DNA from: Escherichia coli
GTDB lineage: Bacteria > Pseudomonadota > Gammaproteobacteria > Enterobacterales > Enterobacteriaceae
Strand: one strand, 5' to 3'
NCBI RefSeq assembly: GCF_003018255.1
Contig: NZ_CP027440.1
Length of the DNA: 64,000 nt
The notes under the pieces were generated by a model. The model made no database searches. It had not been told where the DNA came from and worked only from the letters and a program-made list of their open reading frames with translations. The position numbers and the translations under genes were made by a program. The number at the start of each line of letters is the position of its first letter. Position 1 is the stretch's first letter. This document shows positions 13,907 through 17,118 of this stretch, in pieces.

Positions 13907-14004
13907 AGTCGCTTACCACTTATAAAGATTAATTATAAATATATAATCAATTTTATTTTTAAACCAGTTAGTCGTAACCTTATGCCCGGTTAAAGGAGAG
14001 GGTT

Positions 14005-15054
14005 ATGACGAATATCACCTTACAGAAACAACATCGTACACTGTGGCATTTTATTCCGGGGTTAGCCCTGAGTGCAGTTATCACCGGGGTCGCCCTGTGG
14101 GGTGGTTCCATTCCCGCGGTTGCGGGTGCCGGGTTTAGTGCCCTCACCCTCGCAATCTTGTTGGGGATGGTTTTAGGCAACACCATTTACCCGCACATCT
14201 GGAAAAGCTGTGACGGTGGTGTGCTGTTTGCCAAGCAATATTTATTACGTCTGGGTATCATTCTTTATGGCTTCCGTCTGACGTTCTCGCAAATTGCCGA
14301 TGTCGGTATCAGTGGGATCATCATTGACGTGTTGACGCTGTCCAGTACCTTCCTGCTGGCTTGCTTCCTGGGGCAGAAAGTGTTTGGTCTGGATAAGCAC
14401 ACCAGCTGGTTGATCGGTGCCGGTAGCAGTATCTGTGGTGCTGCCGCGGTACTGGCGACTGAGCCGGTAGTAAAAGCAGAAGCCAGTAAAGTAACCGTGG
14501 CTGTTGCAACCGTTGTTATCTTCGGGACCGTGGCGATTTTCCTCTACCCGGCGATATATCCGCTGATGTCTCAATGGTTTAGTCCGGAAACTTTCGGTAT
14601 CTACATTGGTTCTACTGTGCACGAAGTGGCGCAGGTGGTGGCGGCAGGTCATGCCATCAGCCCGGATGCAGAAAACGCAGCAGTTATTTCCAAAATGCTG
14701 CGCGTGATGATGCTGGCTCCGTTCCTCATCCTGCTGGCGGCGCGTGTTAAACAGCTGTCTGGGGCGAACAGCGGCGAGAAAAGCAAAATCACTATTCCGT
14801 GGTTTGCCATCTTGTTCATCGTCGTTGCCATCTTTAACTCGTTCCACCTGTTACCGCAGAGCGTGGTGAACATGCTGGTAACGCTGGATACCTTCCTGCT
14901 GGCAATGGCGATGGCGGCGCTGGGTCTGACCACTCACGTCAGCGCGCTGAAAAAAGCCGGGGCGAAACCTCTGCTGATGGCACTGGTACTGTTTGCCTGG
15001 CTGATTGTTGGTGGTGGTGCGATTAACTATGTGATTCAAAGCGTCATCGCATAA
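14005..15054 (+). CDS. yeiH: UPF0324 inner-membrane protein
   Basis: 349-aa polytopic membrane protein divergent from its LysR regulator gene yeiE. Confidence 0.88.
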
Positions 15055-15068
15055 ACCACTACATCTTG

Positions 15069-15120
15069 CTCCTGTTAACCCGCTATCATTACCGTTTTCC
15101 TCCAGCGGGTTTAACAGGAG
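15069..15120 (+). promoter_or_regulatory. Long inverted repeat (16/17-bp arms) whose 3' arm contains the nfo Shine-Dalgarno AGGAG
   Basis: CTCCTGTTAACCCGCT ... AGCGGGTTTAACAGGAG. Distal arm ends 8 nt before the nfo ATG. Confidence 0.45.
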
Positions 15121-15127
15121 TCCTCGC

Positions 15128-15985
15128 ATGAAATACATTGGAGCGCACGTTAGTGCTGCTGGCGGTCTGGCAAATGCCGCAATTCGCGCCGCCGAAATCG
15201 ACGCAACCGCGTTTGCCTTGTTCACCAAAAACCAACGTCAGTGGCGTGCCGCACCGCTCACGACGCAAACCATCGATGAATTCAAAGCCGCCTGTGAAAA
15301 ATATCACTACACATCGGCGCAAATTCTTCCCCACGACAGTTATCTGATTAACCTCGGACATCCGGTTGCTGAAGCTCTGGAAAAATCGCGCGATGCCTTT
15401 ATAGATGAAATGCAGCGTTGCGAACAGCTGGGGCTTTCTTTGCTCAACTTCCACCCTGGCAGCCATCTGATGCAGATTTCAGAAGAGGATTGCCTTGCGC
15501 GTATTGCCGAATCCATCAACATTGCGCTGGATAAAACTCAAGGTGTCACCGCGGTGATTGAAAACACCGCCGGTCAGGGCAGTAACTTAGGGTTTAAATT
15601 CGAACATCTCGCAGCGATTATCGACGGCGTGGAAGATAAATCCCGCGTCGGCGTCTGCATTGATACCTGCCATGCTTTCGCTGCCGGGTATGATTTGCGT
15701 ACTCCTGCCGAATGCGAGAAAACGTTCGCTGATTTTGCCCGTATTGTAGGCTTTAAGTATCTGCGCGGGATGCACCTCAACGATGCGAAAAGCACCTTTG
15801 GCAGCCGCGTTGACCGTCATCATAGCCTCGGCGAAGGCAATATCGGTCATGATGCGTTCCGCTGGATCATGCAAGACGACCGTTTCGACGGCATTCCGCT
15901 GATCCTTGAAACCATCAACCCGGATATCTGGGCAGAAGAGATCGCCTGGCTGAAAGCGCAACAAACTGAAAAAGCGGTGGCCTGA
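15128..15985 (+). CDS. nfo: Endonuclease IV (AP endonuclease)
   Basis: 285 aa, matches E. coli Nfo. Confidence 0.95.
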
Positions 15986-15988
15986 TCG

Positions 15989-17077
15989 ATGAACGACAGG
16001 GAAAAGCAGATTCTTAAAATTTTACGGCGTAACCCGCTGATTCAACAGAACGAAATTGCGGATATGCTGCAAATCAGCCGTTCGCGCGTTGCGGCGCATA
16101 TTATGGATTTAATGCGCAAAGGCCGGATTAAAGGCAAAGGTTACATTCTCACCGAGCAGGAATACTGCGTAGTGGTGGGGACAATCAATATGGATATTCG
16201 CGGGATGGCGGATATCCGTTACCCGCAAGCGGCTTCTCATCCCGGTACCATTCATTGCTCGGCAGGCGGCGTTGGACGCAATATCGCCCACAATCTGGCG
16301 CTGTTAGGCCGCGACGTCCATTTGCTTTCAGTGATTGGCGATGACTTTTATGGCGAAATGCTCCTGGAAGAAACGCGCCGCGCCGGCGTGAATGTCTCCG
16401 GCTGCGTTCGTTTACATGGCCAAAGCACATCGACGTATCTGGCAATTGCCAATCGAGACGATCAAACCGTGCTGGCGATTAACGATACCCATCTGCTGGA
16501 TCAGTTGACACCGCAACTACTGAACGGGTCGCGCGATTTACTTCGTCATGCGGGCGTGGTACTTGCTGATTGTAACCTGACAGCCGAGGCGCTGGAATGG
16601 GTCTTTACCCTCGCTGATGAAATCCCGGTGTTTGTCGATACCGTTTCAGAATTCAAAGCGGGCAAAATCAAACACTGGCTGGCGCATATTCACACCCTGA
16701 AACCCACTTTACCGGAGCTGGAAATTTTATGGGGACAGGCGATCACCAGCGATGCTGACCGTAATGCCGCAGTGAATGCGTTGCATCAGCAAGGCGTTCA
16801 GCAACTGTTTGTTTATTTGCCCGATGAGTCAGTTTATTGCAGCGAAAAGGATGGAGAGCAATTTTTGCTGACAGCGCCAGCGCATACGACAGTAGACAGT
16901 TTTGGTGCTGACGATGGTTTTATGGCGGGCCTGGTATATAGCTTTCTGGAGGGAAACAATTTCCGTGACAGCGCCCGTTTTGCGATGGCCTGCGCGGCAA
17001 TTTCACGCGCCAGCGGCAGCTTAAACAACCCTACCCTGTCTGCCGATAACGCGCTTTCATTAGTGCCGATGGTGTAA
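15989..17077 (+). CDS. yeiI: Putative PfkB-family carbohydrate/nucleoside kinase with N-terminal HTH domain
   Basis: 362 aa. N-terminal winged-helix-like segment followed by a PfkB kinase core (GGVGRNIAHNLALLG) paralogous to PsuK. Starts 3 nt after the nfo stop. Confidence 0.85.
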   Translation: MNDREKQILKILRRNPLIQQNEIADMLQISRSRVAAHIMDLMRKGRIKGKGYILTEQEYCVVVGTINMDIRGMADIRYPQAASHPGTIHCSAGGVGRNIAHNLALLGRDVHLLSVIGDDFYGEMLLEETRRAGVNVSGCVRLHGQSTSTYLAIANRDDQTVLAINDTHLLDQLTPQLLNGSRDLLRHAGVVLADCNLTAEALEWVFTLADEIPVFVDTVSEFKAGKIKHWLAHIHTLKPTLPELEILWGQAITSDADRNAAVNALHQQGVQQLFVYLPDESVYCSEKDGEQFLLTAPAHTTVDSFGADDGFMAGLVYSFLEGNNFRDSARFAMACAAISRASGSLNNPTLSADNALSLVPMV

Positions 17078-17084
17078 CAATGTT

Positions 17085-17118
17085 GCCGGATTCGACGCTT
17101 GACTACATCTTATCCGGC
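17085..17118. repeat. REP-like palindrome (GCCGGA ... ATCCGGC) immediately 3' of nupX
   Basis: Inverted GCCGGAT cores between convergent yeiI and nupX. Confidence 0.5.

Follow-up and report, generated by a model that had tools for sequence, protein, structure and literature searches.

The 73-bp spacer between yeiH and nfo in Escherichia coli contains a strong and conserved hairpin that is wrapped around the core promoter of nfo, the mapped start of the nfo-yeiI transcript being located inside its loop. This means that the mRNA made from nfo's own promoter lacks the proximal arm and is unable to form the hairpin. Since both arms occur together only in RNA transcribed from yeiH, sequestration of the nfo Shine-Dalgarno (SD) motif can apply only to yeiH read-through RNA. 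On balance, we lean towards the view that the element is a stem-loop at the 3′ end of yeiH that insulates nfo from yeiH read-through. This would be ordinary biology in a neat arrangement, as a terminal hairpin and insulation against read-through are both of kinds already known.

The window, that is, the whole stretch of 64,000 nt that was analysed, is part of an E. coli chromosome, and its yeiH-nfo region is identical to that of K-12 MG1655. Positions were converted between the two with an offset of 2,235,712, obtained from the nfo ATG (2,250,840 in MG1655 and 15128 in the window), and the features are listed in Table 1. Comparison of loci indicated that the yeiH-nfo synteny is kept across Enterobacterales; yeiE, on the minus strand, is also within the window. 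nfo and yeiI are separated by a gap of 3 nt and were found on a single transcript by sequencing. The 3′ end of that transcript (MG1655 2,252,832, window 17120) is located 2 nt past a REP-like hairpin, GCCGGAT...ATCCGGC, which has no U-tract and lies between the convergent genes yeiI and nupX, at about 17085-17118 of the window. A window-wide scan for inverted repeats also found a REP-type palindrome pair, GCCGGATGCG/CGCATCCGGC, at 983-1030.

Table 1. Features of the yeiH-nfo-yeiI locus, in window coordinates
Feature	Position	Strand	Remarks
yeiH CDS	14005-15054	+	349 aa; ORF list and RefSeq annotation
Marbox-like site ATCGCATAAACCACTACATC	15046-15065	+	Putative SoxS/MarA/Rob site; overlaps the yeiH stop codon and the -35; 18 bp from the -10
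Proximal (5′) arm CTCCTGTTAACCCGCT	15069-15084	+	Promoter spacer, about -26 to -11 relative to the TSS; absent from nfo mRNA
nfo -10 hexamer TATCAT	15084-15089	+	5′ edge of the loop; mapped TSS 5 nt downstream
Loop ATCATTACCGTTTTCCTCC, 19 nt	15085-15103	+	Holds the -10 box, the discriminator and the first ~10 nt of nfo mRNA
nfo-yeiI TSS (G)	15094	+	Mapped start 2,250,806; in the loop, 10 nt past the last base of the proximal arm
Distal (3′) arm AGCGGGTTTAACAGGAG	15104-15120	+	nfo 5′ UTR (+11 to +27); includes SD AGGAG, 15116-15120
nfo CDS	15128-15985	+	Endonuclease IV, 285 aa; ORF list, RefSeq annotation and published transcript reads
yeiI	15989-17077		Co-transcribed with nfo

A first-pass annotation of this DNA had described an inverted repeat with a 19-nt loop and one bulged base, the distal arm of which includes the SD motif AGGAG of nfo, and this description was borne out. 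The stem begins 15 nt past the yeiH stop codon and consists of 16 base pairs and one bulged U, with CCCGC/GCGGG as its inner part. Two details needed correction. That is, the gap between the distal arm and the nfo ATG, given as 8 nt, is 7 nt (15121-15127), and the structure, which had been called GC-rich, has a GC content of 50% over 15063-15130, with 9 G or C bases among the 16 of the proximal arm. RNA folding, which had been suggested as a check, gave a minimum free energy (MFE) of -23.3 kcal/mol for the 52-nt hairpin, well beyond chance when compared to 200 dinucleotide shuffles (-7.7 +/- 2.2 kcal/mol; z = -7.1), none of which folded as well. In an 86-nt context the MFE was -25.8 kcal/mol (z = -6.0), and the hairpin was retained when a context of 191 nt was folded. 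In RNA carrying both arms, the AGGAG motif was paired in the MFE structure as well as in the centroid structure. Pyrimidines form a conserved run in the 3′ part of the loop (15096-15103), within the first ~10 nt of nfo mRNA; it reads TTTCCTCC in E. coli and, in many genera, TTTCCCCC. The CUCC of the loop could pair weakly with GGAG, a pairing that is not conserved.

The start of the nfo transcript was taken from SMRT-Cappable-seq data, i.e. full-length sequencing of 5′-triphosphate transcripts (Yan et al. 2018, PMC6131387, Supplementary Data 1, 2 and 4), in which the nfo-yeiI transcription start site (TSS) is at NC_000913.3:2,250,806, with 145 reads in M9 and 123 reads in rich medium. Transcripts from this position, the only forward TSS listed here, reach 2,252,832 and span b2159|b2160 (nfo-yeiI). 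In each medium, nfo has this nfo-yeiI unit as its one transcriptional context, and yeiH (b2158) forms an operon of its own with a TSS at 2,249,699 (PMC6131387), corresponding to about position 13987 of the window; the yeiH transcripts are the only known RNAs that hold both arms of the hairpin. G-tailing of the cDNA may shift a TSS call to an adjacent genomic G, so the true start could be 1-2 nt further downstream, an uncertainty of about +2 nt that leaves the conclusion on the hairpin unaffected. The reads represent unstressed cells, a SoxS-induced start being outside their direct coverage. The first-pass annotation had proposed a translational control hairpin in the nfo mRNA and had, in advance, set against its own proposal a transcript start downstream of the proximal arm. 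This is where the start was found, and for the mapped mRNA the proposal falls, as the proximal arm is outside the transcript and the conserved -10 box is in the loop.

The promoter elements agree with the mapped start. Across 30 Enterobacteriaceae species the -10 hexamer is invariant in the form TAT..T (TATCAT, TATGAT, TATACT or TATTAT; mean identity 0.91), and in 30/30 species it is located within the loop. The marbox-like site upstream shows two mismatches to the marbox consensus AYNGCACNNWNNRYYAAAYN, as quoted in PMC3709825. Matches to this consensus occur in the window at chance frequency (16 found compared to 17 expected), and for this reason the match was rejected as independent evidence. 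We regard the sequence as a putative activator site on account of its position relative to the -10 box and the TSS, its mean identity of 75% across the 30 species, and the published regulation of nfo by SoxS, nfo being an accepted member of the SoxS regulon (PMC2989944, PMC3709825). From the same marbox/-10 geometry, it would be expected that SoxS uses the core promoter to which the mapped TSS belongs. Furthermore, binding of the RpoD holoenzyme in the yeiH>nfo spacer has been reported by genomic SELEX (PMC3946193). A second promoter candidate picked out by eye, TTGCTC-17-TACCGT, was discarded, since the start expected from it is near 15102 and not at 15094. A consensus scan also returned a promoter-like sequence, TTAACA-17-TACATT, at 15111-15139, over the distal arm and the nfo start codon, which no TSS supports. 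A weak TSS with 2 reads within nfo, at about 15730 of the window (NC_000913.2 2,249,464) and 258 nt 5′ of the yeiI start, was assigned to yeiI by Kim et al. 2012.

The two kinds of RNA that can carry the nfo ribosome-binding site differ in their computed structure. The 5′ UTR of nfo's own transcript (15094-15170) folds no better than shuffled sequences (z = -0.58). The computed probability that the GGAG motif is unpaired is 0.00 in the read-through RNA, compared to 0.55 in the promoter-initiated RNA, and the computed energy needed to open it is 12.7 kcal/mol in the former and 7.3 kcal/mol in the latter. The difference goes in the same direction in 23 of the 26 orthologues with an SD motif, a comparison that assumes the E. 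coli -10-to-TSS distance. The sequestration of the SD motif that had been claimed for this locus is therefore upheld for RNA with both arms, in which the motif is predicted to be buried, and not for nfo's own mRNA, in which it is free of this hairpin. No reads spanning yeiH and nfo are present in the SMRT-Cappable-seq data (PMC6131387), which is weak evidence because yeiH is weakly expressed.

These results also bear on whether the hairpin could after all form in nfo mRNA and throttle its translation by hiding the SD motif, perhaps being opened under stress. Such a role would suit a strong hairpin that includes AGGAG and whose anti-SD sequence CTCCTG is kept in most of the species bearing AGGAG, and an extra upstream start could be used under other conditions. 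We nevertheless consider it highly improbable, given that the only mapped start and the conserved -10 box are both inside the loop, that a promoter scan found no candidate within 14800-15068, that the TSS list of Kim et al. 2012 contains no nfo TSS, and that the 5′ UTR of nfo itself has no significant fold.

Each of 5,425 E. coli genomes has the hairpin at a single location, and the 96-nt region around it (15040-15135) is identical in 5,255 of these. For comparison, 1,264 genomes are at least 99% identical over the 2-kb surroundings, and the spacer is more uniform than the coding flanks. A REP/BIME or other dispersed repeat was rejected on the basis of this single location and since the covariance model had no other match on the + strand of the window. 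No match to an Rfam family was obtained at E <= 1 over 14000-16200. The covariance model, built from 23 species, recovered the hairpin at 30 Enterobacteriaceae loci (E <= 4e-9), in each case immediately 5′ of nfo, and its sole match outside the family was in Edwardsiella (locus L074, E = 0.72). In each species tested, the sequence folds into the same architecture, with z values from -3.5 to -8.4. Standard pairs occupy 84-85% of the paired cells; sliding the partners by 1-3 columns lowers this share to 36-51%. Both bases have changed in three or four pairs, a number that was reached by 2/500 to 19/500 shuffles; the covariation is modest, as the inner CCCGC/GCGGG stem is almost invariant and hence uninformative. 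With RNAalifold, neither of the two alignments (MAFFT and model-fitted) yielded consensus pairs, which probably reflects the gap-rich loop and shifts of register, and conservation of the hairpin was judged instead from the per-species folds and the pair counts.

Changes in individual lineages illustrate how pairing has been maintained. In Shimwellia, whose arms are TGTCAAACCCGC and GCGGGTTTGACA, a U has become C while its partner A has become G, and the bulge has been filled; locus L005 pairs CCCGG with CCGGG, and locus L018 pairs GUAGAC with GUUUUAC. In the Enterobacter group the stem has no bulge and is a perfect 13 bp, and in the Cedecea group (L022 and L023) CTCCTG...CAGGAG is kept despite an insertion of 16 nt. 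The inner half of the proximal arm, AACCCGCT, is the most conserved stretch of the spacer (96% across the 30 Enterobacteriaceae species), and conservation of the distal arm is 80-86%. Loop length differs widely among species, the -10 hexamer and the distal GGG motif being 9 to 49 nt apart. Such variable spacing with complementarity kept fits a nucleic-acid structure rather than a protein site of fixed spacing.

It is against this background that a DNA-level element has to be weighed, be it the operator of a dimeric regulator or a cruciform with an influence on promoter opening. The arms do bracket the core promoter (-26 to -11 and +11 to +27), and a test of which strand is selected leaves room for this reading, with 34 G.U compared to 22 A.C among the pair cells and equal fold energies on both strands. 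The gap of 9-49 nt is, however, incompatible with a fixed dimer geometry, and what is retained in Shimwellia and in loci L018 and L005 is the complementarity and not the sequence of a half-site. Moreover, Citrobacter has exchanged the outer arms for an extended inner stem with a T-run, which is a transcript-level signal. We know of no regulator with such a site, and think a DNA-level role very unlikely.

The other role that had been proposed for the structure, that of a yeiH terminator, gains comparative support from orthologous loci, but the E. coli hairpin is not a canonical terminator. A GC-rich stem directly downstream of yeiH (the inner CCCGC/GCGGG) is a terminator feature. A canonical intrinsic terminator was nonetheless rejected in view of the 19-nt loop, the missing U-tract after the full stem and a consensus scan that reports no site; the tails after the full stem (TCCTCGCA) and after the inner stem (TTTAACAG) each contain 3 T in 8 nt. 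No yeiH 3′ end was found in the published tables searched: Supplementary Data 1 of PMC6131387 has no row for yeiH, and the Term-seq supplements of Adams 2021 have no rows for yeiH or nfo.

In Citrobacter (L004 and L006), a canonical terminator with a 14-bp stem and a 9-nt loop followed by TTTAATTT occupies the same place, without the outer arms and without AGGAG. Both outer arms have been lost together in Citrobacter and in Kluyvera; in the latter (L014) the inner stem is Citrobacter-like, AGGAG is likewise missing, and the tail is below the T-run criterion of the scan. In L004 (2455-2503) and L006 the -10 box (TATACT) is part of the stem, and the terminator stops 6 nt short of the nfo ATG; the nfo genes of L004, L006, L012 and L014 (Citrobacter and Kluyvera) are without an AGGAG SD motif. 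In Serratia, Yersinia nurmii, Edwardsiella and Providencia, canonical terminators are located between yeiH and a separate nfo promoter (CATAAT), and end 60-89 nt before the nfo ATG. These orthologous terminators, together with that of Citrobacter, support a role of the E. coli hairpin at the 3′ end of yeiH.

The Edwardsiella terminator (L063, 2408-2438; L074, 2393-2423) has the form CACCCTGTTAACC-loop-GGTTAGCAGGGTG followed by a T-run, and its 5′ arm has the 10-mer CCTGTTAACC in common with the proximal arm of E. coli. This 10-mer has only two other occurrences in the ~0.5 Mb of compared loci, which suggests that the E. coli hairpin and the Edwardsiella terminator are of common descent, with a conventional terminator as the ancestor. 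As far as the sequences allow one to judge, the nfo core promoter of Enterobacteriaceae seems to have become enclosed by what had been an ordinary yeiH terminator, with the 3′ arm of that terminator merging with the ribosome-binding region AACAGGAG.

Such a history raises the question of whether the hairpin is a mere relic, i.e. an ancestral yeiH terminator that was invaded by the nfo promoter, with the two arms now kept separately, one as promoter spacer and the other as 5′ UTR and SD, and with their complementarity functionless. Conservation of the arms is mostly at the level of sequence, and covariation is scarce; the inner part of the 5′ arm, with its high conservation, adjoins the -10 box; a related ordinary terminator exists in Edwardsiella; and the AACAGGAG SD context is also found in Erwinia and Edwardsiella, both of which are without the wrapped hairpin. 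Promoter spacers are normally free to drift, however, and in Erwiniaceae the CCGCTATGAT promoter core is found without the arm. Furthermore, arms that have changed tend to remain complementary (Shimwellia, L005, L010 and L018), the Cedecea-group loci hold both CTCCTG and CAGGAG across their insertion, and the outer arms in Citrobacter disappeared jointly. A relic thus seems unlikely to us, though less so than the DNA-level role.

In the arrangement that we favour, a yeiH 3′-end stem-loop insulating nfo, the nfo promoter would consist of the marbox-like site, the -10 box and the start at G15094. Its spacer supplies the 5′ arm, the -10 box and the start sit in the loop, and the 3′ arm is the first part of the nfo 5′ UTR, with the ribosome-binding site. 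Two RNAs can then be distinguished. The nfo-yeiI mRNA from nfo's own promoter, being without the 5′ arm, has its ribosome-binding site outside any such hairpin, and the yeiH read-through RNA, with both arms, is predicted to fold the 16-bp hairpin. In the read-through RNA, the hairpin would most likely mark or stabilise the yeiH 3′ end, either through weak, non-canonical termination or by blocking 3′ exonucleases. It would also bury the nfo ribosome-binding site and so block translation of nfo, in which case the untranslated nfo sequence should be open to Rho termination. The net effect would be that the output of nfo tracks its own SoxS/MarA/Rob-responsive promoter and not the expression of yeiH. 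We put forward more tentatively the stronger version of this explanation, namely that the element is an insulator nested in the promoter and selected as such, whereby translation of nfo would be set by which promoter made the RNA, RNA from the SoxS/MarA/Rob-responsive promoter being open and yeiH-derived RNA being closed and then removed through Rho.

If the explanation is correct, a misannotation would be set right, in that a strong hairpin burying the SD motif in front of a stress-induced repair gene would not be a riboregulator of that gene. The locus would also provide a conserved example of a 73-bp spacer in which one transcription unit finishes and another begins, and in which the identity of the promoter decides whether the downstream ribosome-binding site is open. 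There would be a practical consequence as well: nfo fusions that include yeiH sequence and are driven from an upstream vector promoter would under-report translation, whereas fusions with the native promoter would not.

Several known systems resemble parts of this arrangement. Like intrinsic terminators, the hairpin directly follows a stop codon and has an inner CCCGC/GCGGG stem followed by UUU, but the E. coli version differs from them by its 19-nt loop and by having no U-tract after the full stem. The yeiH element is also comparable to REP hairpins and to the stable 3′ stem-loops by which mRNA ends are defined or protected once Rho has terminated transcription (Dar & Sorek 2018, PMC6061677): it is strong, has no U-tract and stands where a transcription unit ends. 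Another case is found at this locus, the nfo-yeiI 3′ end just after the REP-like hairpin. Unlike REP hairpins, the yeiH-nfo element is single-copy and not a member of the REP family. Hairpins that sequester the SD motif within a gene's own 5′ UTR share with it the SD pairing itself, which is present in the two-arm RNA, but the nfo mRNA carries the distal arm only.

The promoter nested in the hairpin, as distinct from the hairpin itself, resembles the class II Mar/Sox/Rob-dependent promoters, reportedly described by Martin et al. in 1999. In promoters of this class, a forward marbox overlaps the -35 and is located about 18-19 bp from the -10 hexamer. The marbox-like site of nfo is likewise in forward orientation, overlaps the -35 and is 18 bp from the -10, the sequence match itself being at chance level.

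The closest parallel to the hairpin is the fold-back inhibition of the transposase of IS10/Tn10 (and IS50) in transcripts entering from outside, which is said to have been described by Davis, Simons and Kleckner in 1985. There, too, the gene's own transcription starts past the 5′ arm of a hairpin that sequesters its SD motif, and this motif lies within the 3′ arm. In IS10 only the external read-through RNA folds and the element's own mRNA is translatable, a behaviour to which the likeness of nfo is one of computed accessibility. The nfo element differs in that it is located between two chromosomal housekeeping genes, in that its loop holds the -10 box and the TSS, and in that its function is derived from comparison and prediction. 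Should a promoter-nested insulator indeed operate at this locus, it would be a chromosomal, housekeeping-gene counterpart of transposon fold-back inhibition.
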